Source: Balanoglossus misakiensis
Taxonomy: Eukaryota; Animalia; Hemichordata
Direction of reading: 5' to 3'
DNA: 64,000 nt
NCBI GenBank assembly: GCA_040954595.2
Contig: CM082576.2
Location: 18,895,028 to 18,959,027 of the forward strand
Shown here: piece after piece, positions 1-30,648 of the stretch
Numbering within the stretch: the first letter of the stretch is position 1
Layout: each line of letters begins with the position of its first letter
The notes under the pieces: model-generated
What the model saw: only the letters and a program-made list of their open reading frames with translations
Told to the model about the DNA's origin: nothing
Database searches by the model: none
Position numbers and translations under genes: made by a program

Positions 1-3000
1 GCAAGCTTGATGATGCATCACGGTAGATAGTGATGCAAACACTTCACTTTGACATGGGCATTAAATGCATATGGGGATTTCAAGTTGATTACAAATCCCT
101 GGGTTAATACGCGTCCAAAAGCACTGTAATTTGACATTGCTAATGCGATGTTGACATTGAATGTAATTCTCCGCATTAGGGCAAATGGAAAAGCAAGCTT
201 AATGATGCAATGGAGTAGACGGTGATGCAAGCTATGCATTTTGACATAGGTATTTAATGCATGTGCATGGGTATTTAATGTTGAATGTAAATTCCCAGGT
301 TAATACATCTCCAAAAGCACTGTAATTTAAAATTGCTAATGTAAGGGTGACATTGAATCTGATTCTTTGCATTATGGGAAATGGCCTAACAAGCCTAATG
401 ATCTATCTGAGTAGATGGTGATGCAAGCTAAGCATTTTGACATAGGTACTAAATGTATATACATGGGTATTTAAAGTTGTCTGTAAATCCCCAGGTTAAT
501 ACATGGCCATAAGCTCTATAATTTGACATTGCTAATGAAATGGTGACACTGAATCTGATTCTTTGCATCAGGGTAAATGGCGATGCAAGCTTGATGATGC
601 ATCCCGGTAGATAGTGATGCAAACACTTCACTGTGACATGGGTATTAAATGCATATGGGGATTAAAAGTTGACTGAAAATCCCTGGGTTAATACAAGTCC
701 AAAAGCACTGAAATTTGACATAGCTAATACAATGGTGACATTGAATGTGATTCTTTGCATTAGGGGAAATGGCGTAGCAAGCCTAATGATGCATCAGTGT
801 AGATGGTGATCCAAGCTATGCTTTTTGACATAGGTATTTAATGCATGTGCATGGGTATTTAATGTTGACTGTAAATCCCTGGGTTAATACAAATCCAAAA
901 GCACTGTAATTTGACATTGCTAATACAACGGTGTCATTTAATCTGATTCTTTGCATCAGGGCAAATTGCGAAGCAAGCTTAATGATGCATCGGAGTATAT
1001 GGTGATGCAAGCTATGCACTTTGACATACGTATTTAATGCATATGCATTGGTATTTAATGTTGACTGTAAATCCCCAGGTTAATACGTGGCCAAAAGCAC
1101 TGTAATTTGACATTGCTAATGCTACCGTGACACTAAATCTGATTCTTTGCATTAGGGTAAATTGTGAAGCAAGCTTGATGATGCATCAGGATAGATGGTG
1201 TTTTAAGCCCCTCACATTGACATTGGAATATAACGCATATGGGGATTTAAAGTTAATTGTAAATACCCAGGTTAATACATGGCCAAAAGCACTGTAATTT
1301 AAAATTGCTAATGCAATGGTGACATTGAATGTGATTCTTTGCATTAGGGGAACTGGCGTAGCAATCCTAATAGTGCATCAGAGTAGATGGTGATGCAAGC
1401 TCTGCACTTTGACATAGGTATTTAATGCATATGCATGTGTATTTAATGTTGACTGTAAATCCTCAGGTGAATACATGGCCATAAACACTATAATTTGACA
1501 TTGCTAATGAAATGGTGACACTGAATCTGATTCTTTGCATCAGGGCATATTGTGAAGCATGCTTGATGATGCATTAGGGTCAATAGTGATGGAAACACTG
1601 CACTATGACATGGGTATTTAATGCATACGCATTGATATTTACAGTTGACTCTAAATCCCGAGGTTTATACATGGCTAAAAGCGCTGTAATTTAAAATTAC
1701 TAATGCAAAGGTTACATTGAATATGGGTAAATGGTGAAGCAAGCTTGAAGATGCATCAGGGTAGCTGGTGTTTCAAGCCCTTCACATTGACATTGGAATA
1801 TAATGCATATGGGGATTTAAAATTGATTGTAAATCCCTAGGTTAATACATGGCCAAAAGCACTGTAATTTAAAATTGCTAATGCAATGGTGACATTGAAT
1901 GTGATTCTTTGCATCAGGGCATATTGTGAAGCATGCTTGATGATGCATTAGGGTCAATAGTGATGGAAACACTGCACTATGACATGGGTATTTAATGCAT
2001 ACGCATTGATATTTACAGTTGACTCTTAATCCCGAGGTTAATACATGGCTAAAAGCACTGTAATTTAAAATTACTAATGCAAAGGTTACATTGAATATGG
2101 GTAAATGGTGAAGCAAGCTTGAAGATGCATCAGGGTAGATGGTGTTTCAAGCCCTTCACATTGACATTGGAATATAATGCATATGGGGATTTAAAATTGA
2201 TTGTAAATCCCTAGGTTAATACGTGGCCAAAAGCAATTTTATTTGACATTGCTAATGCAACGATGACATTGAATCCGATTCTTTGTATCAGGGTAAATGG
2301 CGATGCAAGCTTGATGATGCATCACGGTAGATAGTGATGCAAACACTTCACTTTGACATGGGCATTAAATGCATATGGGGATTTCAAGTTGTTTACAAAT
2401 CCCTGGGTTAATACGCATCCAAAAGCACTGTAATTTGACATTGCTAATGCGATGTTAACATTGAATGTAATTCTCCGCATTAGGGCAAATGGAAAAGCAA
2501 GCTTAATGATGCAATGGAGTAGACGGTGATGCAAGCTATGCATTTTGACATAGGTATTTAATGCATGTGCATGGGTATTTAATGTTGAATGTAAATTCCC
2601 AGGTTAATACATCTCCAAAAGCACTGTAATTTAAAATTGCTAATGTAAGGGTGACATTGAATCTGATTCTTTGCATTATGGGAAATGGCCTAACAAGCCT
2701 AATGATCCATCTGAGTAGATGGTGATGCAAGCTAAGCATTTTGACATAGGTACTAAATGTATATACATGGGTATTTAAAGTTGTCTGTAAATCCCCAGGT
2801 TAATACATGGCCATAAGCTCTATAATTTGACATTGCTAATGAAATGGTGACACTGAATCTGATTCTTTGCATCAGGGCATATTGTGAAGCATGCTTGATG
2901 ATGTATTAGTGTCAACAGTGATGGAAACACTGCACTATGACATGGGTATTTAATGCATATGCATTGATATTTACAGTTGACTCTAAATCCCGAGGTTAGT

Positions 3001-4930
3001 ACATGGCTAAAAGCGCTGTAATTTAAAATTACTAATGCAAAGGTTACATTAAATATGGGTAAATGGTGAAGCAAGCTTGAAGATGCATCAGGGTAGATGG
3101 TGTTTCAAGCCCTTCACATTGACTTGGAATATAATGCATATGGGGATTTAAAATTGATTGTAAATCCCTAGGTTAATACGTGGCCAAAAGCAATTTTATT
3201 TGACATTGCTAATGCAACGATGACATTGAATCCGATTCTTTGCATCAGGGTAAATGGCGATGCAAGCTTGATGATGCATCATGGTAGATAGTGATGCAAA
3301 CACTTCACTTTGACATGGGCATTAAATGCATATGGGGATTTCAAGTTGATTACAAATCCCTGGATTAATACGCGTCCAAAAGCACTGTAATTTGACATTG
3401 CTAATGCGATGTTGACATTGAATGTAATTCTCCGCATTAGGGCAAATGGCAAAGCAAGCTTAATGATGCAATGGAGTAGACGGTGATGCAAGCTATGCAT
3501 TTTGACATAGGTATTTAATGCATGTGCTTGGGTATTTAATGTTGAATGTAAATTCCCAGGTTAATACATCTCCAAAAGCACTGTAATTTAAAATTGCTAA
3601 TGTAAGGGTGACATTGAATCTGATTCTTTGCATTATGGGAAATGGCATAGCAAGCCTAATGATCCATCTGAGTAGATGGTGATGCAAGCTAAGCATTTTG
3701 ATATAGGTACTAAATGTATATACATGGGTATTTAAAGTTGTCTGTAAATCCCCAGGTTAATTCTTGGCAAAAAGCAATTTTATTTTACATTGCTAATGAA
3801 ATGGTGACACTGAATCTGATTCTTTGCATCAGGGTAAATGGCGATGCAAGCTTGATGATGCATCCCGGTAGATAGTGATGCAAACACTTCACTTTGACAT
3901 GGGTATTAAATGCATATGGGGATTAAAAGTTGACTGAAAATCCCTGGGTTAATACAAGTCCAAAAGCACTGAAATTTGACATAGCTAATACAATGGTGAC
4001 ATTGAATGTGATTCTTTGCATTAGGGGAAATGGCGTAGCAAGCCTAATGATGCATCAGTGTAGATGGTGATCCAAGCTCTGCGCTTTGGCATACGTATTT
4101 AATGCATGTGCATGGGTATTTAATGTTGAATGTAAATTCCCAGGTTAATACATCTCCAAAAGCACTGTAATTTAAAATTGCTAATGTAAGGGTGACATTG
4201 AATCTGATTCTTTGCATTATGGGAAATGGCATAGCAAGCCTAATGATCCATCTGAGTAGATGGTGATGCAAGCTAAGCATTTTGATATAGGTACTAAATG
4301 TATATACATGGGTATTTAAAGTTGTCTGTAAATCCCCAGGTTAATTCTTGGCAAAAAGCAATTTTATTTTACATTGCTAATGAAATGGTGACACTGAATC
4401 TGATTCTTTGCATCAGGGTAAATGGCGATGCAAGCTTGATGATGCATCCCGGTAGATAGTGATGCAAACACTTCACTTTGACATGGGTATTAAATGCATA
4501 TGGGGATTAAAAGTTGACTGAAAATCCCTGGGTTAATACAAGTCCAAAAGCACTGAAATTTGACATAGCTAATACAATGGTGACATTGAATGTGATTCTT
4601 TGCATTAGGGGAAATGGCGTAGCAAGCCTAATGATGCATCAGTGTAGATGGTGATCCAAGCTCTGCGCTTTGGCATACGTATTTAATGCATGTGCATGGG
4701 TATTTAATGTTGAATGTAAATTCCCAGGTTAATATATGCATGGGTATTTAATGTTGACTGTAAATCCCTAGGTTAATACATGGCCATAAGTACTGTAAGG
4801 GGTAGATGGTGATGCAAGCTCTGCACTTTGACATGGGGATTAAATGCATGCTGAGGGGGATTTTAAGTTGTCTGTAAATCCCCAGGTTGATATGTGGCCA
4901 AAAGCACTGTAATTTGACATTGCTAATGAT
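1..4930. repeat. Tandem satellite, 192/196-bp monomer, with higher-order repeats; begins before the window
   Basis: The motif GCAAGC(T/C)T(G/A)ATG recurs at 1, 193, 389, 585, 777, 973 and 1169 (spacing 192-196). Near-identical ORF translations recur at offsets of 957 and 584 bp. Confidence 0.95.
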
Positions 4931-8926: not shown

Positions 8927-9456
8927 CACATGGGGATTAAATGCACATGCGTGTGTATTTAAAGTTAACTGTAAATCCCCAGGTTAATACGTGGCCAAAA
9001 GCACTGTAATTTGGCATTTCTAATGATGGTGAGATGTTGTTTGCTCCCCAGGGAGTTGAATGGAATATTTAGGTCCAACATCCTAGGTCAAATGACCATG
9101 GGACAACTTAAAGCACGTTGAGATTTAATGTGCTACATAAGTTATAAATATTATAAAAATATTATTACATAAACAACACTCTTCCTTAGCAAAGGAAGTG
9201 GTCAGGTGAAATATATTCGCAGAGCTGACCAATTCTTTAAGGAAAATTAAAGTTGGGTAATTTGGATGTATTCATACGAGTGTTGGTCAATGATAGGAAA
9301 GTCCTTTGTTCATTTTCAAAATGAAAACCAAAAATGCGAACAAAACACACTGAATTACGTATGGGATATTGATGTTGCCTAATTTGCGTGACTCTACATT
9401 TACTTAAACTCTCACAGGGAGACAAATGTCACAGCAAACGGAAAAATGATTATGCT
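8927..9456 (+). repeat. Duplicated block, copy 2 (isolated satellite fragment + SINE tail + flank)
   Basis: Matches 4830-5350. Confidence 0.85.
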
Positions 9457-9459
9457 AAG

Positions 9460-11425
9460 CAATACGCCAACCTTTAAAATATACTTTAGAAAGTTTGTAT
9501 TCATACTTTCTTCAAGTTGTCATAACGCTACCCCGAAATGTGTTTAAGTATTGCCTTTGTATTAATGGGCTAGATTCATGGCGTTATATGTCATAAATTA
9601 AAAAGCCAACCCTTATTGATTTTGATAATATTTATGTCGGAGAATCCACAATGAAAAATATGTATTTCAATTTAATAACTCAAAATGATTTTCAAATCCA
9701 TGACCTTATTTTCAACTCCAGTGATCGTACATCCTGAACCTTGTGCCAGTAAATGATTGGCCATTACAGGGTTAATGGGCACTCTCCCGTTCTCTTCCTC
9801 CGCAGTTTCATTCATGTTCTTGTTTGACGGAAATGGGTGTGACCAGACGCTTGAATGTTTTCATGTGGGTGTCGTTGTTCATCGGGATCGGTCTCCTGGT
9901 GTGTCTGTACAGGTACGCAAGGAGAAACTGCCCACAAGAAGCTGCGAGTGAAACTATTTAAGGTAGTATGTGCCTCGCGGTCCGAGATTCAGACAAATGA
10001 TAGTCCTCAAAACTTTTTCAAGTCTTTGATTTACTAAAGTGTATGGTGAGTCTCTTTGAAAACAACAAAAACATTACTCACCATATTGTTATTTTTTTGA
10101 AAGTTTAAAATGAAGTTGACAATGTACCAAACAGATTCTATTTATTTCTTCATGACCATGTTCACCCCAAGGTCATATGGACCTGCAAGTATATGCCAGA
10201 GCCAGAGTCGACATTACCGAAGCCAGAGTTCAAAGCTTGCAGGTCACCCCTTGCCAGCTCATGTCTAGCTAAACTGCCATGGATGCCAAGAGATATAGGA
10301 CTACAGTAACCTGTAGATGGTTTCAGTATGTTTGAAGAAAGTGGTGGCGCACTTTTGGCTACATTTGAAATGGCTATGGTACCAGTGGTTGAATTTGCAA
10401 AGGTGACCTTTGACCTGGTATCATTAAAGATATTAAAGAACGATTGAACATTCCTTGTTGTCGTAAAATGACATCTGTAATAACTTATATTTTATCTGTT
10501 CATCTTGAAGTACTATATATTTAAACGCCAATTTTCCATTGCCAATCAATTTTTACAAATAAATTGTAATATGCATGTTGATTTTACAAAAACTCCTTAC
10601 TTCAAAGTGAATTCTGTTACACATCACGTAAATATTTTCCCCACGAATTCTTCAGTTGCTGACTCGGAAATTTCATATATTGGGCAGAAATTGGATATAT
10701 TACCGAGCCATTAAAATTACAGTTTTCTATTTTAATTGATCTTCCATAACTTCAAGTACTTTGATTTGACATAAATTAAAACATCATGGTGAATAAATAA
10801 AAAATCTTTGATTATCTAATTGTGCATGTTTACATGGTTTTATTTTAGTATGCTGGGTACTTAATGTCTAATTGCTCGCTGATTTTATACTGTTCAAGAT
10901 GACAATCTAATTTTAGTTTTCAGCTGATAATGGAAATTACTGATTAAAAAAATTGAATTTTGTCATGAATAAACTTGTTGTTCATGGCAGTTGCTGTACT
11001 TTGTTTCATGTGTATTCAATTTTTGCAAGAATACCATTGAGCACAGTTTGATTTGATTAAACACGTTTATCGGAAAATTTTGTCATTTGAAATATCTGTT
11101 TTTGCGCCCTCTACCATTTGACCAAATGATTCTCTTATTTTGGTGGCCTTTGTCTGTGTATATGAGAATACTATAGTACTCTCGCATCGATGATAGTAGA
11201 AGTTGAAAACGTCTCTTGCCACGTGGCCTAGAAGAAAGGTGATCTTTAGAGTAAAATAAAACAAACTATCCAGATAGGAAGCTAGAAAAGAAGTTGAATC
11301 GTTGAAATTTTATTTATTTTTATATTGTTAATATCGTTGGTGATGTTGACTGGCCGACAATCTTTGTCACACCAGTATTTGCAGGTAGATTAAAACATTG
11401 CCTATTCCAGCAATAATCACAACAG
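9460..11425 (+). repeat. ~2-kb dispersed repeat, copy 1 (unclassified)
   Basis: Colinear, high identity with 30649-32616 from CAATACGCCAACCTTTAAAAT to CCAGCAATAATCACAACAG. Confidence 0.9.
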
Positions 11426-13274: not shown

Positions 13275-15047
13275 TTGGAAGGGACTGCTTTAAAAGATTA
13301 TGTTAGAGAGGAACAAATTAGACAGAGGGATCTTAGGGCTACTGAGAGAGAGGAGCAGAGAGAAGATAATAGGCGGCGCGAGGAACATGAGAGAGAGATA
13401 CTGAAAATGCAAATTCACTTACAAGAATTAAAATTGAAAGGGGAAAATACAGAACAGCAGGTTACTGAAAATAATTTGGCCAAAGCGCGTGCTCCGAGAC
13501 TACAGGGTTTACGTGAGGATGTTGATGATATGGATGCGTACCTTCAACGTTTTCAGCGCTACGCCACTGCTCAGAAGTGGGAAAAAGATGACTGGGGGTG
13601 AATCTCAGTGCATATTGTTACAAGGTAAGGATGTATCCACATACAACCAAATGCCTGCAGCGTCTGCAAATAATTATGATGAATTGAAACCAGAGTTATT
13701 GAGGGCTTACCAGTTAAGTGAGGAGAGTTTTCATGACAAGTTCCGTTCGTGTATGCCACATTATGATGAAAGTGCTCAAAAGTTTATGGACCGTATTGGT
13801 GACTATTTGGGCAGATGGGTAGAACTGGCTGGTACTCCAAAGACGTACAATGGGCTTACAGATCTGTTACTTCGAGAGCAGTTTATTGGAGTATGTTCCA
13901 GAGACATGGCAATGTTCATTAGAGAGCGACGGCCAGAGAATGTCCAAGAGATGGTATCTACTGCCTCAAAATACTTAGATGCCCGAGGGTGGTGGAAACT
14001 GCCAAGTAATGCCAAGAATAATCCAAGGAGCCAGCCGACAGCAAATACCAAGCCTGCTGTATATCCAAATCAAGTAAATAAGTTTAATAACAAAACCAAT
14101 GGTTCCCATGTTTTTAAAGGTACGTGCTTCGTATGTGGTAAAGGTGGTCATATGGCCAAAGATTGTAGAAGTAAGCCAAAGATGCATAAGACGGCGGTAT
14201 TGTTAACTGAAGAAGATAGAAACTATCCACCTAAACAAGAATGTACACATTGGGGCAACCGTCAACAGCCCAGGGGACTAGACACTGGTTATGCATGTAT
14301 GGTGGTAGCAATGGAAATAGATAAAACAGATGCAACACTGAATAAGGAGTTCGTGTTACCATGTAGTCATAAGCTCCCAGTGATGAGTGCTGCTTGTAGT
14401 GCCCATGGAGTGAAGAAGATGCCGGTAATGAAGGGATTGGTCGATGGTAAGCTGGTTAGCGTTTTGCGTGATAGTGGGTGTAGTAGCGTGGTAGTTCGAA
14501 GAAGTCTGGTGTCAAGTAATCAGCTGACTGGTGAGTACAGGACGTGTGTTCTGATAGATGGGACTATTAGAAGAGTACCTGTAGCCTCTATAAAAGTTGA
14601 TACCCCTTACTTTGTTGGTGATGTTACTGCACTGTGCATGATGAACCCTGTGTATGATTTAATACTGGGCAACATTGATGGTGTATCTGACCCTTCGAAT
14701 CCTGATACTACATGGCAGGAACCATTGCCGACATGTAGACTGTGTACAACTGTTGGACAGGTACCAGGTTTAGCAAATGCTGTGGAGACCAGAGCCCAGA
14801 AGATAGCCAACCAAAAACCAATCAGAGAGCTTAAAGTACCTAAAGCTGTTGGTGAAGTGGTGATGCCAGGGAAGCTTCAACAAGCTCAAGAAGAAGACTC
14901 CACTCTTGACAAACTACGTGAGAAGGCAATTTTGGGTGACGAGAAAGTGACTAGGAATGGAGGTAGGTTGAAGTTCATCATGAAAGATGGGATCCTGTAC
15001 AGAGAGTTCAATTCGCCAATGGTCCAATTTGGTGAAAAGCTGTTACA
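13275..15047 (+). pseudogene. gag: Gypsy gag-protease (frameshifted near 13595-13615)
   Basis: DDMDAYLQRFQRYA..W gag motif, SCAN-like LLLREQF, zinc knuckle CFVCGKGGHMAKDC, aspartic protease LRDSGCSSVVV. The frame is broken at 15048 by the insertion. Confidence 0.9.
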
Positions 15048-15087
15048 CACTGCGGGAAATACTAGAGCTATGTTGGGCAGTATTCCG
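15048..15087 (+). repeat. Left bipartite terminal inverted repeat
   Basis: CACTGCGG, an 18-nt spacer, then TGGGCAGTATT at positions 27-37 from the end. Confidence 0.85.
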
Positions 15088-15131
15088 CGAAGCGCGAGCT
15101 CCCATGTTCACCATAGCAACGCATTGCCAAG

Positions 15132-15775
15132 ATGGCGGCGCCCGTGTTGATCGATGCCGAGAAAGTTATAAAACGCAAATTGCGAGAGGCAAAATCTGTG
15201 CTTAAAAATGCGTGTCGGACAATCTGTATATACACCCACTCTTTGATGAACTTGAGGATGTGACAACAAGGGCCATATTTCGAAACGACAAGCTGTCAAA
15301 GGACAAGATTCGTTGGCGTGACGTCGCCGTATTTCCCATGTTTCAGCGTGATATGACCTACTGGCAGAAGACCTTCTACGCTCGGCTGTCAACATCCCCG
15401 TCGTTAAGGTCACCATGGCAAAGCAGCTTTACACAACAAATGCCGAGGGAAGTATTTGATGTTTTTCATCAGTTTGCTACTCGGACCGGTTTTGGTATCG
15501 ACGAGAAGACCTCCAGGGCTATCATAACCTTGACCTTCACAAGTTCCTCGAAGCTATTGTATGTGATACGGAAAGGTTATTGCTACGAGGGCGCTATCGG
15601 TCAGCATACAGAGAATATCCTAGAGAAGAAAGTCCGTGGAAAGAGGGTAGCTGTTATATGCACACCTGAGAAGCCCTGTGTTGTGAAATATTTTATCAAC
15701 AGGGAGACTGTTGCTGTTAGATTCAGCTTTGGTGCCTGGAACAAACATGGAATTCCATTACATCCAGAGAACTGA
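15132..15775 (+). CDS. Transposon partner gene, ~214 aa, unknown function; one apparent frameshift
   Basis: 187-codon stop-free frame at 15212-15775. An upstream AAGATGGCGGCG start at 15132 joins it if one A is added to the A5 run near 15204 (MAAPVLIDAEKVIKRKLREAKSVLKKCVSDNLYIHPLF...). AATAAA at 15904. Confidence 0.65.
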
Positions 15776-16627
15776 ACCCTATTGATTTTTCACACTGATT
15801 CAACCCATCTGACGAACATTTTTTTCCTGATCTGTGGCACATGTTGTTCAGTGTAGATGTATCAGTCTGTCAAGACAGTCCTCTCACAATTGACATATAT
15901 TCAAATAAAAAAAGGAAAATTAGAAGACTCAAAAATTCATCACTTGTCTTTATTTATCTACATTCAATACAAATGAACAGATAACGTTTACAAAATTTCC
16001 TAAACTGTAAAATTCTTTTTTTCCATCATTATTGTAACATAGATTTTTCATTAGTTTCAGAAAAAAATGTATGTTACCTACAATCAACATTGATAAGTCA
16101 ATCAAAACTGCTCATCTAACAGTTAACCAGGATTTCTGGTCTAAATTTAATTAATATTTACAATTAATTCCATGACAAAATTTATAAATATCAAGAATTT
16201 GATGAGACTTAATTCTTTATTTTTTCACAAATTCATTAAAATTTCGTGCAGGTGCAGAATAAACAACTCCTCAAGAAAAATGTAAAACTTTTCTATCAAG
16301 CTTATGTATGTCATACATTTTAATTTTGCAAAGCACTGCAATCACTATACGATTAAGGGTTTATTCACAATACTTAATAGTGGTAAGATAAGTTTCAATT
16401 TCCCTGTCCCCATACATGCACACATATACAAAATCCCATAAGAAACATATCATCTCCAGTTCAAAAAGTGTGAATTCATGTGATTTGTGATCTCCATTTT
16501 TATTAAATGCAGCTCTCAACTACAGATGAGTCTTTATAATTCTGTAATGTAATTAATACCATAGTTATCCTTTAATTCTAAAGTAGCACACAGTGACACA
16601 ATCCACTGTTTCAAATTCAATCATTGT

Positions 16628-18868
16628 TCACAGCATAAGTTTCTTGAGTTTATTTGATATTTTACCAGTGACAGCTGCTTTTTTTATGTCATCCATAATT
16701 GGGTCAACACATATTTCACAGGCAGTCATTGTTTCATTTTTCAAATTGCCACACATACAGTAGCCTGCATTCTCATAATATCGACTGGGAATGTATTTTT
16801 CTTTTTCTTTAAGCTCAAATTGACCTACATTTGCCCTTCTATAGTTGTCAGCTTTTGGACTTTTGTTCCTCAGCCAAAAAAGCATCACATATTCGTGTCG
16901 AAATATGAGGGCCCACCTATTTTGAGGTGTAGAATTTTCACTGAATTCTAGCAGGCGTAGATGCTTTGCCTCTCTGCCTTCCATTGTGTTTAGGCCTAAT
17001 CCCAGACTGAATTGCTTATAGATACTAGTGGTGTGTTTTGGGACTACATAACCAATGTGCCACACAGTATTATTGACATTCAGAAACAGGGAATGTAGAT
17101 TAAAGTACCACCGACACTTATGCCTAAGTACAAGCAAATCTCCCTCATTTATGTTGAATCGTGAGAATAACAAAGTGATATCTCAAAGCAAGATACCAGT
17201 ATATGTGTAGAGAGCTAATTGAGCCCGACGCTTTGGACTGTCTGTATCGCTTCTCAATGCTAATACCAATCCCATGAAATGCCAAGCAAGTTTGCGAGAC
17301 TCCTCACCAGTGAAGCGATAAACCACATTAATGTTGGCATTTGACTTGACACTATTTTCATTGAAGTATTTTACAATCTTATTATACAACTTTCCAGCTT
17401 TTACTTGATATTTTAGGGCAGACAGGAATTTGTACAGATATGACTCGTTAGGTAGATTCTCAATTTTAACTCCATTTTCACGACCCTTTTCCGAAGTGTG
17501 GGCAACTGCGTCAATCAGTAATCGTTGGAAGTAGTATTGCCATGCATTGTTCTTTAAATGCAATGGCTCAGCCTTGGCACAATCAATAAATCTACCCAAC
17601 GGTGGTACAAATTCCTGTCTTGACCTCAGACTGGCTATAAATTGTGTGATTTTGGGTCGCACTGTTTTGGGCTTTCCAGTTTTAATTTTCTTAGTTGACT
17701 TCAACTTTTCAACAGCTTCTGCATCTTTAATTCTTTTCTGATATTTCCATTCATCCCACTTCTGACCTGGGCCAATTTCTGCTCCAATACAATCAATATC
17801 ATTTTTGGAAACGTTAGCAAATGAGCTGAAATACTTTGCTGCATTGCTTAGTTCTCCAGACACACTGGCCAATCCCTTCTGATCAAAGGGTAAAAGTGAC
17901 ACCTGAAAAGTTACATCAAGACTGCCAACTTTATATTTACGTTTCTCAATACACTCAAGGTCTTTTGACAATGCAATTGCAAATTCAATCATTATGGGGT
18001 CATCCTCTTTTATGTTTGCCCCTAATAGGAGAAAATTGTGGTCTGGGCTAGCAACACGGTGGGTCACATTCAAGAAACTAACTAGCCATGCAGTAGCCTG
18101 TCCATGTTTGCCAAACGGAGCCCCGTCAGCACCTATACTGATTTGAAATGAGCCCTCCTGTTTACCGAACCAGTTAAGAATATCAGGCTGTGTTTCCCCC
18201 ATATTTAAATATAAACTGGCAATCTTAATAAGCAACTCCTCAGGGTTTCTTTTTAAGCCGACTTGTTTGCCTTCAGATGATATAATTGGCTCAAGATTTC
18301 CAATGTCAAGGTTACTTACATACTGTACAACTTTTGTGTATGGGAGCAGTCTTGGTATTCTACAGCCAGAATGAATTTCTAATGCTTTCCTAGGATGTTT
18401 CAAGTTGGAGAACATCTGAAGTTCACTCTGCCTCAGACAGTTATATTTTCGTTTGGATAGTACTCCGCCCTCATACATAGTTCTGACACTCCTCACCAAA
18501 TTGTTCTCACTTTTCTCAAATTTACTGATGTATTTATCAAATACTGATGGCATTACTTTTTTACTGATTTGGGGAGAGGTTCTGAAGTATGTTTTCATTT
18601 GGTCAGGAGTGGCAGAATTAACAAGAGTATACCACAAACCATCAAGTGCTGCTTTTGGTGGATGTAGTACATTCGGTTTATTTATACCTTTGGCTGGGCT
18701 TACATCTGTAGTTGCTACATGAATATTTATGGCTGCTGATAAGGTTTCACACCTACGTTCATACTGTTGACGTCGCGACAGCTTCAAAGATTCACTATTA
18801 TCTGCACATACTTCAGTGTTCTTGTGGACCCATTTAGAGCGTTTCACATTAACATCATCAACAGGAAT
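16628..18868 (-). pseudogene. DDE transposase main exon, RAG1/Transib/Chapaev-like; single in-frame TGA at 17183-17185
   Basis: ORFs 17183-18847 and 16628-17173 share a frame across one TGA (likely CGA>TGA; LL*DITLLFSRF). Motifs in RAG1-core order: GADGAPF (D at 18125-18127), PFDQKGL..G (D at 17882-17884), EPLHL, RFTGEESRKL, GLNTMEGREAKH (E at 16970-16972). Acceptor TTAATCTTTCAG ends at 18869. Confidence 0.85.
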
Positions 18869-19221
18869 CTGAAAGATTAAGTGTGTGATAAATATATAAT
18901 AATTAGAATATAATCATTATATATAAAATAAAATCTTCTTACAAGTTAATCATTAATTTAAATGTCCTTGATAAGAAATACACAAGTGTAGCCTGTATTT
19001 TTCTGACAACTTCTGCAATAAAAATCCTAAAAAATATATATAGTTTGTTGGAAAACCTAGATGTTTTGCATCAAAGCTGAACCCATTTTGTTATCATTGT
19101 TTACACAGGATCATGTGACATGAAGTTCAAAAAGCGAATTTGGGCTAAAATTTGAAGAGGATTTATACAAATCTGAGATTTTTAAAATTATGACTAAGTC
19201 TATTTATCTGATCTAGCTTAC

Positions 19222-19681
19222 CTTTCTCTTATTATTCTTTGTAGCTAAGATCTCACAAATCTTACTGTTCTTCTTCTCTAGTCTAGCTAGCTGGGTTGAG
19301 GATCTTTTTACTAGTCTCCTAGCTGCACTCAACTTATTCAACTTATCCTGAATTATGCTTTCTTCCTCATCTCTCTTTCTCTTTCTCTGTCTACACCACT
19401 CTCCTAAGTTAAACCTGTGTTTAGTCTGTCCTCTCTTTGTTCTAACTACCAATAGGTTGTTGGCCACGCTCCCAGACAAAGATCTAGTCTTCAATTTCTC
19501 CTGATATAGTTGTTGCAAACACTTCTCTTCAGCTACCTGTCCCGCTAACTTTTGGTCCTTTGCCCACTGGCCTATGTTGAAGTAACTTTTCCCTTTTCTA
19601 TTCGGCATAACAATAGACAAACTTTTAAGAAGTGCGCTACTCCTGTTGAATAGTTTGCCCCACATGGCTCTAAATCTATAC
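19222..19681 (-). CDS. Upstream exon of the transposase (basic, coiled-coil-like N-terminus)
   Basis: The open frame ends at AAG|GTAAG (donor at 19221) in phase 0 and matches the phase-0 acceptor at 18869 (353-bp intron). Acceptor CCCTTTTCAG at 19682; candidate ATG at 19665. The true start may lie further upstream. Confidence 0.75.
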
Positions 19682-20473
19682 CTGAAAAGGGTGAACAAGA
19701 GAAATATCTTTACAATAATTATCTATCCGAGGGAAGCAAAAACAAAACACCTGCTCATTATACTTCCTCCAGAAATTGAGGTCAAAGGTGACATAGAAAG
19801 AATGTGGGTAACCTTACCATAACAATCTCGCCCGTTCATTTTTTTCTTATTTCGTTTTCACCCTCGAATTTCCAGCGAATTATATCAAGAATATATTTTA
19901 GCACAAACTATTGGTTTCTGATTTTTCAGTTACGGTCTTATTTTCTGTCAATTCTATGAACAATATCACCATGTCGCTGAAAATTCGAAGCGCCGCCATT
20001 ACAATCAATGTAACCCGTGCTGCTGCCAAGGAACACACAGGGTCGTATATTTTCGCTTGGTATGATTTCGTCATATTGCTTGTAGCAGCATTTTAAACAT
20101 GGAATCCTATGTTTACGTATAAAAGACTAAATTCGTATGGTTTTCAAATTGAAAAAAACAATTCTGTGAAGCTGAATCGTTGTAATTTTTAGTGTTTGTT
20201 TATGGTTGCTTAGGACGGCTTCTGGTATAGCAACGGCCAGGGACTGTCAGCGGGTGATCAAAATGTTCAAGTTATTTGGCTGATACACATAAATAACACA
20301 GCAGAATCGCAACTTTATTTCATATTGTCTCTGACATCTTGCTAATTTTACTAAACAAAACTTGGAATAAAGCAATATTACTCACCGAATTATGCTGTGC
20401 ATCGACAGCTGTGTTCGATCGCGAACGCCATTACTGTGTCTAATTAAATATTCATGAGCTTCATAGGCTGCCA

Positions 20474-20514
20474 CGGAAATACTGCCCATAGGTGGCGTCG
20501 TTCAAGCTGTAGTG
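20474..20514 (-). repeat. Right bipartite terminal inverted repeat
   Basis: The reverse complement reads CACTACAG, an 18-nt spacer, then TGGGCAGTATT at positions 27-37. Confidence 0.85.
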
Positions 20515-20517
20515 ACA

Positions 20518-22523
20518 GGTGGTGGTTCCCAGAGTGTATCGTAACCAGGTGATGAGACTAGCCCATGAATCAGTGCTGGGTGGTCACCACGGAACTCACA
20601 AGACCACAGACAAGATCCTCAGCAACTTCGTTTGGCCTGGGCTAACATCAGATGTTTCCCGTTACTGTCAGTCCTGTGATTCATGTCAACGGACACAACC
20701 AAAGGGACGGGTGACCAAGGTACCACTTGGAAGTATGCCACTAATAGATATCCCTTTCCTACGTATTGCAGTAGACCTGGTTGGCCCTATTCATCCATGC
20801 ACTGAACGCAAGAATAGGTACATACTTACTGTTGTTGATTATGCAACACGCTATCCGGAGGCTGTTGCATTGACTAACATTGATACCAAGACTGTTGCAG
20901 AGGCGCTCCTGGACATCTACTCAAGAGTGGGGTGTCCACGTGAAATTCTGACAGATCAAGGAACTCAATTTACATCAGATGTGATGCGTGAGGTCAGCCG
21001 GCTTTTGTCTATAAAGCAGAAGACTACCACCCCATACCACCCAGCATTCAATGGTCTAGTGGAACGGTTCAATGGTACATTGAAACTCATGCTCAGGAAG
21101 ATGTGTGAGGAACATCCAACATATTGGGATCGTTATCTGAATGCTTTACTATTTGCCTACAGAGAAACGCCTCAATCGAGCACAGGATTCTCTCCGTTTG
21201 AGTTACTTTATGGGAGGAGTGTGCGTGGTCCAATGGCTATCTTGAAAGAACTATGGACTGGAGAGATCAGTGAACCAGAAACCAAAACGACTTATCAATA
21301 CATCCTTGATCTTCAAAAGAAATTAAAGAAGGCATGCGATTTAGCAAGACAAGAACTGAAGATATCACAAGGCAAATACAAGTCCTACTACAATAGAAAG
21401 GCCAAATGGAGGAAGTTCAACAAAGGTGACGAGGTGTTATTGCTACTACCTACTGACCATAATAAACTACTTATGCACTGGAAGGGTCCTTTTCCAGTGG
21501 TGGAGAAAGCGAGCAATATGGATTACAAGATTGACTTTGGTCATAGGGTGAAAACATTCCATGCCAACCTGTTGAAGAGGTACTATCGAAGAACTGATCA
21601 GCTAGATGAAGTATCAGCTGGACTTCTTGAGATTGTGTGTGTATCTGTGATAGATGAGCAGAGTTATGAATCTTCAGAAGTACAAGAGAACACAGGGGTT
21701 AAAGTAAACGATGACTTACTGCGGGTTCCTGCATTCAAGCAGAAAGAATTTGCTGCAGATGTGAATGTATGTGACAACTTGTCAGACATACAGGAGCAAG
21801 TGGTGAGGAGGTTGCTGATCAATTACAAAGATATGTTAACTGATATTCGTGGTAACACCAACCTGGGTTTCCATGACATCAAGTTGATGGATCCAACACC
21901 AGTATGCAGTAGGCCATACCCCATCCCTCATGCACTCCGTGAAGCAGTGAAAGATGAAGTCAAAACGATGATTAAGATGGGAGTAGCTGAACCTTCAGAG
22001 AGTCCATATGCTGTTCCACTGGTAATGGTGAAGAAATCTGATGGGTCCAATCGTTGTTGTGTTGACATGAGAAAGCTCAATCGCATAACAGTGTTTGATG
22101 CAGAGCCTACACCAGACCTGAGTGAGCTTTTTGCTTTTTGCTAAGTTATCCAAGGATCACTATTTCACTAAAGTAGATCTCAGCAAAGAATATTGGCAAG
22201 TCCCGTTGACTGATAATTCTAAACAATTGACGGCATTTATCACGCATGATGGGCTATACCATTTTATCAAAATGCCTTTCGGACTTGTAAATAGTGCTGC
22301 GACTTTTAGCAGAATTATGAGAAGATTGTTAAGAGATATGAAGAACGTAGACAACTATATCGATCACATACTGATCCACACTGCATCATGGGAAGAACAT
22401 ATCAAGACAATTACAGATTTGATGAGCAGACTACGAAAGGCAAAGTTAACAGCGAGACCAACTAAGTGTTATGTGGGTTATGAGCAGATCGATTTCCTGG
22501 GTCATGTGGTTGGTCATGGTGAA
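20518..22523 (+). pseudogene. pol: Gypsy pol: integrase followed by truncated reverse transcriptase
   Basis: Integrase HHCC (AHES..GHHG..CQSCDSC) and DDE (AVDLVGP, ILTDQG, GLVERFNGTLK). RT motifs VKKSDGSNRCCVDMRKLN, DLSKEYWQ, MPFGLVN and YIDH (degenerate YIDD). Frameshift near 22130; homology stops after FLGHVVG. Confidence 0.92.
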
Positions 22524-22885: not shown

Positions 22886-23944
22886 AATGTCCCATGTGCT
22901 TCCTGGCTAGCATTGTGGTAACATATTATTCGGGGTGTCCGCAGATCGTTCATTGATTTTCTGAGAAATAGCCTAACTGATACTATCTCCAACATAAACC
23001 GCACCCTGGAAAGATTAAATGATCTTTTAGGTGGACTTTGAAAATCTGATTAACTCATCTAAGCATTTTAGCTAAGTTGTATATTTTTTAATTATAATCA
23101 TACAAAATACTTAAAAAATAAAAACAATGTTCAGTTTTAATACCCACTGATGAGGGGAAACATCAGTTTCAAATTCTTTTCATGGGAGCGCTTGAGCAGA
23201 GTTATGAGTTTTGCTCTGTGAAAGAAAATGGGGGGATTTCAAAATTTTGGCAGTTCGGAAGGGGGATTTCAAAATATTTCGGGTTGTGAAAGGGGGGGGG
23301 CATGTGAAAATTAGCGGTAAAAGATGAATCCCCCCCCCCCTCCAGAGGTGTTTGTGAATGCAGCCTAAGAAAGAAAAAATGTGAAATGGGTCAAATATGG
23401 GCCGGACGTGCCCATTCAACTCAATTTACTTTTGTTTGCTTTAAGTAGGAATTGATCACAGCTATATTTATTTTGGACACCTGAGCGACAAGAAAACAAT
23501 CTGATTCTACATTTTAAAAAGAGTCATTGGAAAAGCACTGCAATTTTGTTTCTTGCTTTAAAAAAGTTTGGGGTGGCATGTAATAATTAAGGTGTGTCTA
23601 AATTACTAATTTGGTGCACCTCAAAGCCCTTAGCCAATGTAAATTATATCCTGCATTGTATTCATGATATTTGCATGGCATTTGCATGCGCGTATCACGT
23701 CTCCTTGCTCTGCAAAATAGTCGAGATTTTCTGCAAAGGATTCCAGTTTTTTGTTGTATTACTCAAGGAATTGGTTTACGAATGGTCTATGCTTGTCCTG
23801 CTGTGGTCAGAAATTGATGTTCTTTGCTTTTGACAAGGCATTTGGGCCGAATTTTAGTGAACTTCGGTAAGCCATTCACTACTGCTGATAGCGGTTACGT
23901 AATTTGGTGTGGGATCGTGACGTGGCCACTTGTGGTGACTCAGT

Positions 23945-25123
23945 ATGCCTCTGACCTGCGAGGACTGCGGAGAGTGCTCTTCGAGAGTTAGTCTGTGCCA
24001 AGGAGATATGCATCTGTGTAATACTTGCAACAAGAAACGATTTGGTGGCAGTAACGGCTCTACAGCGGATGGAGGAAGTGGACGAAGTAGAATAAGCGAC
24101 AGTGGTGTGGTAATTAACGAACTTTTATGTTTTATTGTGAATAAGATGGATGTTCTTACAACAGACCTGCTGGTGAAGTTGTGTTGCGACCAATTTAACG
24201 ATGGAGAAGTCGAGACTGCAAAGCGTACTCTTTTTGAACTATGTTGCAATGACCCTGGGAGGATGATAAAACGTCAGGGGCAGAATAAACGATTCAACAA
24301 TTTGATGGATATGGTGAAATTGCTCCACGAAGTTGACATTGAAGACCTGCCATGCTTCGTTGCTAAAGATTTGGCAAAACTCCCGCCAATTGATACGTCT
24401 CACATCGACGTCTCCACATTGATGACAGAACTGAAGTCACTAAGGCGAGAAATGGCACAAATGAAAGACACTGTGGTGCGGTCCGAGGTGACCGATTTTG
24501 CAAGTGAACTCAGTTTGTTGCGGCAAGAAATTTGTGAAGTGAAAAATTGCGTCGATAATTTGCAGAAAGGAGGTGTTGAAAGCGACGTGGTTTCACAGGT
24601 GGCACAATGTGAGCCGCCAAGACCAGCTGTTTGTGAGCCACTGGATCCCCATTGTTCTCTGAACAAAGACCCTCATACGAGCTCGTATGCAGACATAGTT
24701 CAATCACGTGTATCAGCGGTGAAAGCCAAGCGTCCAGTTCAGTCGGACCGTCCATCGACAAAGGTATCTGAAATCCAGTCGGGGAATGGAGAAGAAGAGT
24801 TTACTGTGGTGTCTCGCCGACCTAAACGTCGTCCTCAGGCAGTTTTTGGCACAGCAAAACTCAGTGATGATTCTGCTATCAAATCTGTTCGCCCTAATCC
24901 GCCTTTTAAATTTTTTGTCACTAGATTTGCACCCACAACGACTTCAGATGCTGTTATTTCTTATATTAAAAAACGCAGTCATGTTACCGTTAAATGCGAA
25001 CAACTGAAAACCAAATATGATACTTATTCATCATTTGTGGTTGAAACGACACGTGAGTTCGCCGAGGAAATTCGTGACCCTGCGATGTGGCCTGATGGTA
25101 TTCTTATCCGCCGTTACTATTAA
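23945..25123 (+). CDS. LINE ORF1 protein, 392 aa
   Basis: Intact ATG-to-stop ORF ending 8 nt before ORF2. N-terminal CxxC..CxxC, VVINELLCFI block, coiled coil, and C-terminal RRM-like FFVTRF...YSSF..WPDGILIRRY typical of CR1/L2 ORF1. Confidence 0.88.
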   Translation: MPLTCEDCGECSSRVSLCQGDMHLCNTCNKKRFGGSNGSTADGGSGRSRISDSGVVINELLCFIVNKMDVLTTDLLVKLCCDQFNDGEVETAKRTLFELCCNDPGRMIKRQGQNKRFNNLMDMVKLLHEVDIEDLPCFVAKDLAKLPPIDTSHIDVSTLMTELKSLRREMAQMKDTVVRSEVTDFASELSLLRQEICEVKNCVDNLQKGGVESDVVSQVAQCEPPRPAVCEPLDPHCSLNKDPHTSSYADIVQSRVSAVKAKRPVQSDRPSTKVSEIQSGNGEEEFTVVSRRPKRRPQAVFGTAKLSDDSAIKSVRPNPPFKFFVTRFAPTTTSDAVISYIKKRSHVTVKCEQLKTKYDTYSSFVVETTREFAEEIRDPAMWPDGILIRRYY

Positions 25124-25131
25124 TTTATTGT

Positions 25132-27946
25132 ATGACACTACGTCTTTCTACATATAACTGTCGTGGCATAAAGTCATCAGTAGACTCTATTATGTCTCTC
25201 TGTAACGATCATGATGTTATACTCGTTCAAGAACACTGGCTGACGGAAGCGGAACTACCTCTTCTGTCGAGTATTCACAAAGACTTTAATGCATGTGGTA
25301 TTTCTGCCATTCAAGATGACTGTGGAATTCGCATCGGGCGTCCATTTGGTGGAGTTGCAATCATGTGGCGTAAATCCTTGGGACAAAACTTTTCAATAAA
25401 ATATTTAGATGATACAAGACTTTTAGGTGCTGATATTGTTACATCTTCTGGAAAACTTTTTATTTTATGTGCGTACCTCCCGACCTGTTCTGGAGAAAAT
25501 TATGACACTTATATGAATTATTTGGCAAAAATTAATTGCATTATTAATGATATTGACACAACGAATGTTATAATTCTTGGCGATTTTAACGCTAACTTTG
25601 GTACAATATTTGCTAGGGAGCTTGATATTTTTTGTAAAGAACATAATTTGTATATCTCCGATGTTGAAAAGCTTGGTAGATGCAATGATAATTTTACATT
25701 CGTTAGTGATGCACATGGTAGTACTGGTTGGTTGGACCATATTTTGAGCACCCATGCAGTACATAATGCTATTTCTAGTATTGGTATTTTGTATGATTAT
25801 GTGTCCTCTGACCATTTTCCTCTTTCTGTAAATATTGATATTGTTGGGTTAGTACATACAGATCCGATTCCACAAAATGTTACCAATGCTCATGCGAAGC
25901 CTAACTGGAGTAAAGCGACACCCAGGAACTTGTCTGCTTATGAACATATGACGGAGTGCTTACTCCGTAGACTGGATATCCCAAATGTTGCTCTTGTATG
26001 TCGAGATCCTAACTGTAAGAATATAGATCACATTAGCAGTCTAAATTCTTTGTATTCGAATATTGTTACTTCTCTTAAATCAGCTGCGTTGAACTGCATT
26101 CCTGCTTCGAAGGCAGAGGGGTTGGGTTTTAATACTGTTCCAGGTTGGAATGAACATGTACGTGATTTTCACAATGCCGCTCGTGATGCATTTAAATTAT
26201 GGGCTGCTAATGGCAGGCCTAGGTTTGGCCCGCTCTTTGATCTCATGCGCAGAACTCGTGCAAAATTTAAGTCGGTTTTACGGGCGTGTAGAAGAGATGA
26301 AAACCTAGCCAGGGCCCAGGCTTTGGCCAAAAACTTGACGCAGGGGGGCACACGTAAGTTTTGGCAGTCTGTACATACCACTCGTGGTTGTTTATCTTCG
26401 CTTCCGACCAGTGTAGGTGGCTGCACCGGTCATGAAAATGTTGCCGATATGTGGAAACAACATTATGAAAGTTTGTTGAATTCTGTTTCGAACTGTCGTG
26501 ATAGAGCATTTGTATTGTCATCGTTAAATGAAACTGGTTCCCACAACAATGCCATGGTTGTTACTGCGATGGAACTAAAAGGGTGTATTGATAAGCTTGA
26601 GAAGGGAAAGGCATTGGGCTATGATGGTCTTGGTGCCGAACATCTCATGTATGCAAGTCCAATCATTTGCGTTATGTTGAGTTTATGTTTTACTAGTTTT
26701 TTTACACATGGTTATTTACCCGAGACTTTAATGCACGCCATTATTTGTCCTATTGTGAAGGATAAATCCAAAGATCTTACTTCTGTGGATAATTATAGGC
26801 CCATTGCAATTGTCACGGCCATCTCGAAAGTTCTGGAACTTTGTATTCTATCTCGTATTGATTCACTCTTAGATACAAGCAATTTACAGTTTGGTTTTAA
26901 AAGTAATCACTCTACCGACATGTGTATCTTTGTTCTCAAAGAAATTGTTGACTTTTATAAGAGGCATAATACGCCAGTTTACCTCTGTTTTATGGATGCT
27001 ACGAAAGCTTTTGATAGGGTCAACCACTGGACTTTGTTTAGAAAACTGATTAACTGCAAGATACCTCTTTTTATTATTCGTATTTTACAATATTGGTATA
27101 GTAATCAATGCTTTTCTGTGCGCTGGGCATCTGTAATTTCTAATTCCTTCAGTGTTATTAACGGTGTACGGCAAGGAAGTATTCTTTCACCCAAACTGTT
27201 CGCTATATATGTAAATGATTTAAGCGGTCAGCTGCAATCAGCCGGGGTTGGCTGTTACCTAGCTAATACCATTGTTAACCATTTGTTCTATGCAGACGAT
27301 TTAGTCTTGATTTGTCCGTCGGTCAAAGCATTACAGAAACTGAGTAACATTTGTGAACTGTATGGAAATGAGCATGATATTATTTTTCATACTGCAAAGA
27401 CAGAGTGTATGGCAATTTTCCCAAAGTCTTGGAAAGCACACAGAATTCCTTGTGTATATTTGTATGGTAAACCTCTTAAGTATGTATGTACAAAAAAAGT
27501 ATCTTGGCTATATTATGTCCTCTTCGGGTATGGATGATGCTGATATGCAGCGGCAGCTTCGTTGCTTTTATGCTAGAGCTAATTTTATTTTGCGTAATTT
27601 TGGCCATTGCTCATATAAGGTGAAGTGCACTCTTTTTAAAAGTTTTTTATATAGTGTTTATTGTCTTAACGTGTGGTGTAACTACAGTGTCAAACAAATG
27701 TCTACTTTAAAAGTTGCGTATAACAATACCTTAAGATTGATTTTTAATCTGAAACGCGATGTAAGCATAAGTCATAACTTTGTAAGTAGGAATATTTTGA
27801 ACTTCACCTCGCTACATCGAAAATTGGTTTTCTCCTTTTGCCAACGCTTACAAAAAAGCGGTAACCCGGTTATCCGCAGTTGTATACAGACTGACTGTTA
27901 CTTTTTATCTACATTCTGGGGGCATTGCAGGGTTGTTCTTCATTAA
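25132..27946 (+). CDS. LINE ORF2 (AP endonuclease + RT); one frameshift at the A7 run 27492-27498
   Basis: APE motifs TYNCRG, QEHWL, GDFNA, WLDHIL, SDHFPL. RT motifs NYRPIA, QFGFK, DATKAFD, GVRQGSILSP, FYADDL. Deleting one A gives KKYLGY and continues into ORF 27353-27946. Confidence 0.92.
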
Positions 27947-30535: not shown

Positions 30536-30648
30536 GCGTTAACATAACTTTATCAGAATAAGTTAACGCCATAACTTTGACAGAATAAGAGTTGCCTCAA
30601 ACGGCTCTAACCGAATTTCCATTAATAGCAGAACAAACAAGCTGTAAT

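Follow-up and report, generated by a model that had tools for sequence, protein, structure and literature searches.

A DNA transposon of Balanoglossus misakiensis with a predicted RAG1/Transib-fold transposase and a motif at a fixed distance from its CAC tips

The window analysed here, a 64,000-nucleotide stretch of the genome of the acorn worm Balanoglossus misakiensis, contains a DNA transposon of 5467 bp that starts with CAC and ends with GTG (15048..20514). It is bordered by identical ACA trinucleotides on the left (15045..15047) and on the right (20515..20517). Comparison of the flanks for duplications of 2, 4, 5 and 6 bp yielded none, and only the 3-bp ACA matches. The transposon interrupts the frames of a Gypsy retroelement. 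It splits the gag/protease frame (13438..15047, plus strand; Pfam SCAN, zf-CCHC and a weak Asp_protease_2), and the integrase frame (20516..22144, plus strand; Integrase_H2C2 and rve) follows on its other side. Because the ACA duplication and the interruption of Gypsy gag-pol fix the borders, the ends of the transposon are defined without using the box described below. The element thus displays the terminal inverted motifs and the target-site duplication (TSD) of DDE cut-and-paste transposons. Two direct repeats of 1975 bp, 96.4% identical to each other (9456-11425 and 30645-32616), likely represent the LTRs of the host Gypsy; enclosed in it, too, is a LINE-like ORF pair at 23939-27946. The nested elements are surrounded by a 196-bp tandem array and a long 78-bp AT-rich satellite (window 1-4738 and 33600-64000).

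Sequencing contigs from one sample span both transposon/Gypsy junctions (window 14900-20700). No alternative flank for the exact family of the window element was found in these contigs, which can show presence only. In run X1, the transposon, both Gypsy flanks and the junction-crossing contigs have similar depth (about 1500-1750), and a contig of a sister element has a depth of 114; the transposon and its host Gypsy may have been amplified together, depth not being equivalent to copy number. Differences between the run contigs and the window lie at the partner-gene frameshift (15203) and at the transposase stop (17185), and the contigs contain more indels in the transposase frame (positions listed: 16736 and 17809), so that the places at which the window copy is broken are not those of the run copies. 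The same sample includes a second, more distant relative of the transposase gene on a 5099-bp contig, which aligns to window positions 17353-17438 over 86 nt with 14 differences.

The main exon of the transposase gene (16628..18868, minus strand) comprises 746 codons and encodes a DDE transposase of predicted RAG1 fold, with D248, D329 and E633 as the catalytic residues according to the predicted fold and the alignment, and with a C-terminal CxC...CxxC motif. Its reading frame contains one premature stop (17183-17185, minus strand). A probable upstream exon with an undefined start (19222..19722, minus strand) is an open frame, the GT donor of which, at 19221, is in phase with the AG acceptor preceding 18868; this splice is placed by consensus only. 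Among 7993 scored candidates, 401 are relatives of the transposase, the best being from Ptychodera flava (73%). Other named matches, from Dendronephthya, Porites, Nematostella and Actinia, are all uncharacterized proteins, and the transposase profile recovers 696 representatives at E-values up to 1e-30. None of the 13 transposase proteins or pieces compared with Pfam matched a transposase family. Searches for RAG1 and Transib among PDB sequences, which cover only solved members, gave 0 hits with phmmer and none with the profile at E-values up to 10. The AlphaFold model of the transposase (pLDDT 87) was matched by Foldseek to RAG1 (E-value 2e-12), HzTransib (9e-8) and BbRAG1L (1e-5). VIA returned Z scores of 22.8 for RAG1 (468 aligned residues, rmsd 3.8), 20.1 for HzTransib and 20.0 for BbRAG1L, as well as 11.0 for the P element and 5.3 for Hermes. 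The transposase is thus predicted to have the RAG1/Transib fold, at an identity of 11-13% in the structural alignment to the Transib comparison.

The VIA alignments mostly begin at residues 113-118 of the model. Four of the 50 extend to residues 10-75, which they superimpose on RAG1 from residues 408-413 onwards with an rmsd of 6-8, and most do without this part. Passages of PMC1131882 give residues 387-480 as the nonamer-binding region of RAG1. On the basis of the model, the N-terminal helical part of the transposase is predicted to align loosely with this nonamer-binding domain. In 80 aligned family members, both aspartates of the catalytic triad are invariant (80/80 each) and the glutamate is present in 78. 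Neither CxxC nor C(2)C is conserved between the second aspartate and the glutamate in these 80 sequences. In the H(4)H motif, which precedes the glutamate, the first histidine is found in 29/80 members (it is a tyrosine in the window) and the second in 76/80; the C-terminal CxC...CxxC is shared by 72-74 of the 80. A C(2)C zinc motif is common to the named CMCT lineages according to parts of PMC12730594. Since CxxC is absent and the first histidine of H(4)H is degenerate, the zinc site of those lineages has likely been lost. Three distant relatives of the transposase (P0334, P0338 and P0348) carry a C-terminal SAP-like domain, and two of them also have a weak match to a C2H2 finger.

The second gene of the transposon (15132..15775, plus strand), recognized through its homologues and the PF26709 assignment precomputed in relatives, encodes a small partner protein of about 210 aa in relatives. 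Its ATG lies at element nt 85, and the window copy is frameshifted near 15203, where the run contigs differ by an indel. The gene is convergent (tail-to-tail) to the transposase gene in 32 of the 34 loci with at least 1500 bp downstream, representing 15 of 16 families. The partner profile collects 112 relatives, nearly all of them with a precomputed match to Pfam PF26709; our literature search found no paper naming this accession. The model of the partner (pLDDT 88) consists of a helical hairpin and an alpha/beta domain, and is not a beta-propeller. No kelch or PHD Pfam match was found in 17 members, no Foldseek match at E-values up to 0.001 and nothing among PDB sequences below an E-value of 0.059. 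In the wide VIA search, matches were confined to the helical hairpin at the N-terminus (Z up to 7.6), and the C-terminal domain (about residues 66-208) was barely probed. No DNA-binding fold was matched by Foldseek or, for the hairpin part, by VIA. The predicted complex of the transposase and partner of L076, a related element with both frames open, scored 0.00 in a run without alignments and with the partner fold uncertain, a score that speaks neither for nor against an association. In 23 of the 25 listed ends, the partner ATG is located 75-132 nt from its end of the element. A CAGCGG-like motif, possibly a promoter element, is present at nt 52-68 in 20 of the 25 listed partner-side ends; it precedes the ATG by 30-70 nt and floats with respect to the tip.

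Both ends of the window element are organized in two parts, and their sequences are present in the window as the initial annotation wrote them. The left end consists of the terminal block CACTGCGG (15048..15055, plus strand), which is CACGCYGGG-like in relatives, an 18-nt spacer (15056..15073, plus strand) and the box TGGGCAGTATT at nt 27-37 (15074..15084, plus strand). At the right end, read on the minus strand, the terminal block CACTACAG (20507..20514), with CACTA at its tip, is followed by an 18-nt spacer (20489..20506) and by an exact match to the box TGGGCAGTATT, again at nt 27-37 (20478..20488). The start of the box at nt 27 on both ends and the equal length of the spacers, both claimed initially, hold: the two ends are identical at 6/8 positions in nt 1-8, at 4/18 in nt 9-26 and at 11/11 in nt 27-37. 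Exact TGGGCAGTATT occurs in the 64-kb window only at these two places (15074-15084, plus strand, and 20478-20488, minus strand). Among 159,372 opposite-strand CAC-CAC pairs in window 5001-33000, eight, the true pair included, have a same-offset run of at least 11.

The left end also carries an inverted partial box, GGGAAATACT (15054..15063, minus strand), from which the initial annotation had deduced that the two ends are asymmetric. The inverted partial box indeed exists and has a 9-nt exact match to the box region of the right end, a length that 10 of 5000 shuffles attained when tested post hoc. However, the resulting asymmetry is private to the window copy. Matches of this kind reach at most 6 nt in 29 ends of relatives compared with themselves and in 26 cross-end comparisons, and the inverted partial box is absent from the loose end of the sister element. 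As it occurs in no relative examined, it does not represent an asymmetry of the family, and we reject it as a family feature; its unusual presence here may be due to a one-off copy from the other end or to chance. General hairpin formation by the ends is likewise rejected (mean z of -0.43 over 31 ends, -1.8 for the left end of the window).

A sister element of the same organism, found in the one-sample contigs, aligns with the window element from 15073 inward over 114 nt with 20 differences and 2 gaps, and is ~82% alike inward of nt 26. When its 30-letter loose end is taken as adjoining the joint of the alignment, CAC lies exactly 25 letters out; by hand count, the tip matches at 8/9 positions and nt 10-25 at 5/16. 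The flank beside this tip differs from that of the window element. The sister element thus holds the 18-nt spacing with a third, unrelated spacer.

The ends of more distant relatives were collected by a metagenome scan, which yielded 250 transposase relatives; the best 80 of these 250, representing 43 DNA-level families, were used. The tip pattern covers nt 1-9 only and was picked after a first look at the ends. Around the best 80 transposases, 53 tip motifs face inward and none (0) outward. Three probably spurious hits (L008 8158, L068 2773 and L072 60) were dropped before the counts on 29 ends and are still counted in the 53 and in the 31-end table. After removal of doubtful hits and redundancy, the set comprised 29 ends from 16 families. 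A pattern search of viral contigs gave 54 matches, with no relatives among them. In seven of nine multi-copy groups, the flanks directly outside CAC differ among copies of the same end. Five of the 12 loci with both ends have a 3-bp TSD (L010, which is ambiguous, L018, L027, L066 and L076), compared with 3-bp matches in 15 of 396 arbitrary flank pairs; no TSD of 4 or 5 bp was found among the 12. The TSD sequences are ACA, TAG, AGC, AAT and GAT, with TTA only in the ambiguous L010. The other 7/12 loci have no 3-bp TSD, which may result from chimeric assembly of multicopy elements. In L009-L014 (5' region), L016-L019, L043 and L056, an inverted partial copy of the partner-side region is located upstream of the transposase; a second internal CAC end is present in L009-L014, and partner fragments in L016-L019.

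The distance between the tip and the box is a property of the whole family. When the 6-mer of the window box was slid along the 29 ends of relatives, the best position was nt 27 (3.14/6), followed by nt 28 (2.83), and no other position exceeded 2.10. Identity between families amounts to 0.42 at nt 24-33 (0.33 at nt 11-23, 0.26 at nt 38-60); none of 1000 jittered sets (0/1000) reached 0.42. A profile of nt 24-36 (majority AATTTGGCCATTT), scored at 27 offsets, fitted best at offset 0 in 18/29 ends with the family left out and in 16/29 with the clade left out, versus 2/29 and 0/29, respectively, for a control block in the same held-out test; the clade-out profile thus misses offset 0 in 13/29 ends. 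With the window ends left out, the profile built from relatives only scores best at offset 0 on both of them. The box is found in all five clades of the tree, with family-specific letters; the tree, a quick midpoint-rooted version containing family members only, was used solely to sort the ends into these clades. One profile fits both sides of the relatives at offset 0, showing that the spacing is symmetric (18/18 in the window). The box is weakly dyad-like, with its centre near nt 30 (complementarity of 0.43). Since the position of the partner ATG varies from nt 75 to 132 as the box stays put, the position of the box is measured from the tip. The fixed distance that had been deduced from two ends therefore extends to the family: tip block and box are each conserved in their own right, they lie at a constant distance from each other throughout the family, and the sister element keeps the register. 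Free variation of the box position, which the initial annotation had considered, is not what we observe.

The spacers are less independent than the window copy suggests. They are unrelated in the window, as had been claimed, but in 13 end-to-end pairings from 10 relative families nt 11-23 match at anything between 1/13 and 12/13 positions, and nt 27-37 at 3/11 to 10/11. In families 0, 5 (inner end), 8, 9 and 31, nt 11-23 match between the ends at 10-12/13 positions, forming near-continuous inverted repeats of ~35 nt, so that the spacer is not free and only relatively variable. The spacer also carries positional information, since a spacer profile (14 offsets) itself finds offset 0 in 15/29 ends with the family left out and in 7/29 with the clade left out. 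This profile often fits best 10-11 nt further inward (nt 19-23 and 29-33), which suggests a weak repeat one helical turn apart in the ends of relatives. Among the pairings compared, the sharp split into an identical box and an unrelated spacer is seen only in the window and in L008, the end pair of which matches at 10/10 positions in the tip, 3/13 at nt 11-23 and 10/11 in the box. In L018, one spacer carries an 8-nt deletion despite the 3-bp TSD of the locus, and in L076 one box is displaced by 1 nt; the first-D motif of L076 contains an unusual arginine. Continuous inverted repeats, the other possibility raised initially, are thus approached in several families, whereas L008 and the sister element are split like the window. 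The two-part layout of the ends is real and family-wide, and softer than in the window copy.

Taken together, we consider it probable that these are the ends of a transposon with a 3-bp TSD and a transposase of predicted RAG1/Transib fold, and that each end combines a conserved tip (nt 1-9) with a second motif at a constant distance (nt 24-36), which likely serves the transposition complex as a binding site of its own. If the analogy with RAG and ProtoRAG holds, the CAC border would be cut by the catalytic core, likely through the nick and hairpin reactions of RAG, and the N-terminal domain of the transposase would hold the box, about three helical turns further inward. The length of the spacer would then be constrained more than its sequence, the two equal 18/18 ends would pair without a 12/23 rule, integration would occur with a 3-bp stagger and the partner protein would likely serve as an accessory factor. 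For the TR1-spacer-TR5 ends of ProtoRAG, passages of PMC8289069 report that mutation of TR5 and shortening of the spacer lower recombination and its precision. Invertebrate RAGL transposons are said in parts of PMC7204232 and PMC10462144 to rely mainly on the first 15-17 bp, with which the matching up to nt 16-17 in several of the present families would fit.

To a chance match of the box we assign a negligible probability: 11-mers with two mismatches to the box are found in the window at chance frequency (15 versus 12.3 expected), but the rarity of CAC pairs with such a run (8/159,372) and the offset 0 chosen on both window ends by the relatives-only profile rule it out. A more substantial alternative sees the ends as ordinary, imperfect inverted repeats of ~35 nt that are bound over their full length; the spacer difference in the window would then reflect relaxed constraint or decay. 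The near-continuous repeats of families 0, 5, 8, 9 and 31 and the positional signal of the spacer profile are what this alternative would lead one to expect. Nevertheless, the sister element, ~82% alike inward of nt 26 and with 8/9 matches in its tip, has only 5/16 at nt 10-25 and still keeps the length; L008 is independently split; and cross-family conservation rises again at nt 24-33 after the spacer. We therefore regard full-length binding as unlikely.

The remaining alternatives concern the function of the box. It could be bound by the partner protein and not by the N-terminal domain of the transposase, the partner providing distal recognition of the end. The conserved convergent partner (32/34 loci, 15/16 families), the dyad-like nature of the box and its centre at about nt 30, between the nonamer positions of the 12- and 23-RSS (by the arithmetic of 7+12 and 7+23), are compatible with such a role. 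However, the N-terminal helices of the transposase align with the nonamer-binding domain of RAG1 in the 4/50 VIA alignments mentioned above, and no DNA-binding fold was matched for the partner, making partner binding distinctly unlikely; it would, moreover, retain the bipartite site and change only the binder. It is also conceivable that the box is a promoter element or a site for a host transcription factor, with both genes reading inward, so that its fixed place was inherited and is not a rule of transposition. Such a role is possible because, at both ends, a gene start or candidate start that reads inward is no more than about 130 nt away: the partner ATG is 75-132 nt from the end in 23/25 listed ends, and starts of the ATGGCG type were seen by eye near several transposase-side ends. 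The weak dyad near nt 30 (0.43 complementary) would also suit a promoter box. Yet the box is fixed relative to CAC, whereas the positions of the start codon and of the CAGCGG-like motif vary by tens of bases, and its family-specific letters would fit co-evolution with an element-encoded protein better than recognition by one host factor. Accordingly, we give the promoter explanation little probability. A separate binding site in the ends remains our preferred reading.

The initial annotation had likened the ends to RSSs and to the termini of Transib and ProtoRAG. The likeness stands for the layout and for the RAG1/Transib-like transposase model, but sequence, zinc motif and partner gene are not those of Transib or ProtoRAG. 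A two-part layout of the ends has itself been described already for Transib and RAGL (parts of PMC1131882 and PMC9435367). The RAGL/ProtoRAG transposons have CAC tips and two conserved blocks separated by a fixed-length spacer (TR1-TRsp-TR5, passages of PMC8289069). They also share with the present family two tail-to-tail genes, the RAG1-like core fold and a cysteine-rich C-terminal tail. By contrast, the TSD is 3 bp here versus 5 bp, the spacing 18/18 versus 27/31, the tail CxC...CxxC versus CX2CX3GHX4C, and the second gene encodes an alpha/beta protein of ~210 aa lacking kelch and PHD matches instead of the kelch-PHD RAG2L; there is no conserved CxxC and no sequence-level match, and the box resembles neither TR5 nor the nonamer. 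We reject membership in RAGL on the basis of the 3-bp TSD and the lack of RAG2 and CxxC. V(D)J RSSs similarly start with CAC and consist of a conserved block, a spacer and a conserved block. Unlike them, the ends described here have no 12/23 asymmetry, no A-rich nonamer and a different tip consensus after CAC. They are RSS-like only in arrangement and are symmetric; with equal spacing on both ends, no 12/23-type rule applies.

Transib elements come close in their CAC tips and conserved-spacer-conserved terminal inverted repeats, symmetric in many families (passages of PMC1131882 and PMC9435367), and in fold (Z of 20.1 to HzTransib). The 3-bp TSD alone does not exclude this group, because some Transibs, those starting with G, have TSDs of 3 bp according to parts of bioRxiv 10.64898/2026.08.26.747230. 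The differences are the absence of a profile match to HzTransib or RAG1 at E-values up to 10, with the 11-13% identity in the structural alignment, the degenerate zinc motif, the second conserved gene and the GC-rich box at nt 27; the second gene and the missing similarity in sequence speak against placing the family in Transib. EnSpm elements encode a second protein besides the transposase. EnSpm/CACTA and wider CMCT elements have CAC..GTG termini with a 3-bp TSD, and the right tip in the window reads CACTA; the definition of CMCT in passages of PMC12730594, CA..TG termini with a TSD of 2-5 bp, describes the present element as well. It differs from them in having no Pfam transposase hit, no C(2)C and convergent genes. 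Chapaev3 and Chapaev share CAC...GTG, a 3-bp TSD and an LH motif (parts of PMC4079192). However, the TSDs found here (ACA, TAG, AGC, AAT and GAT) are not the TWA given for Chapaev3 in that source, and unlike Chapaev the family has no C(2)C, only a partial H(4)H and no Chapa-type zinc finger in the aligned exon. As neither TWA nor C(2)C, which appear in passages of PMC4079192 and PMC4411706, is present, membership in Chapaev3 is rejected.

The transposon may be an unclassified cousin of the transposons ancestral to V(D)J recombination. Tentatively, and with slightly less than even confidence, we propose that it belongs to a RAG1-fold lineage that is unclassified, occurs widely in corals and anemones and is also present in acorn worms, and that combines a lost zinc site with symmetric 18/18 bipartite ends, a 3-bp TSD and a tail-to-tail partner. 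This partner would have been acquired independently at the place occupied by RAG2 in RAGL, making the lineage a parallel invention of the RAG1-plus-cofactor arrangement. No description of the lineage was found in the searched literature, to which Repbase and subscription journals did not belong; the lineage is probably unclassified, and a Repbase name may exist. For PF26709, the family provides a context, that of a transposon partner gene, and a role as transposase is indicated for many "uncharacterized" proteins of marine invertebrates (696 representatives at E-values up to 1e-30).

The evolution of RAG1 towards a two-part signal and dependence on a partner is an open question for which very few outgroups, Transib and ProtoRAG, are at hand. 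The present transposon family can serve as a deep outgroup that shares the predicted core fold and has a motif at fixed distance, symmetric spacing, another target stagger and another convergent partner. L076 is a natural element, both frames of which are open, and the element of P0002, a Ptychodera relative with its own ends, is an alternative to it; whether the spacing follows a rule, what binds the box and which role the partner has are therefore directly testable.
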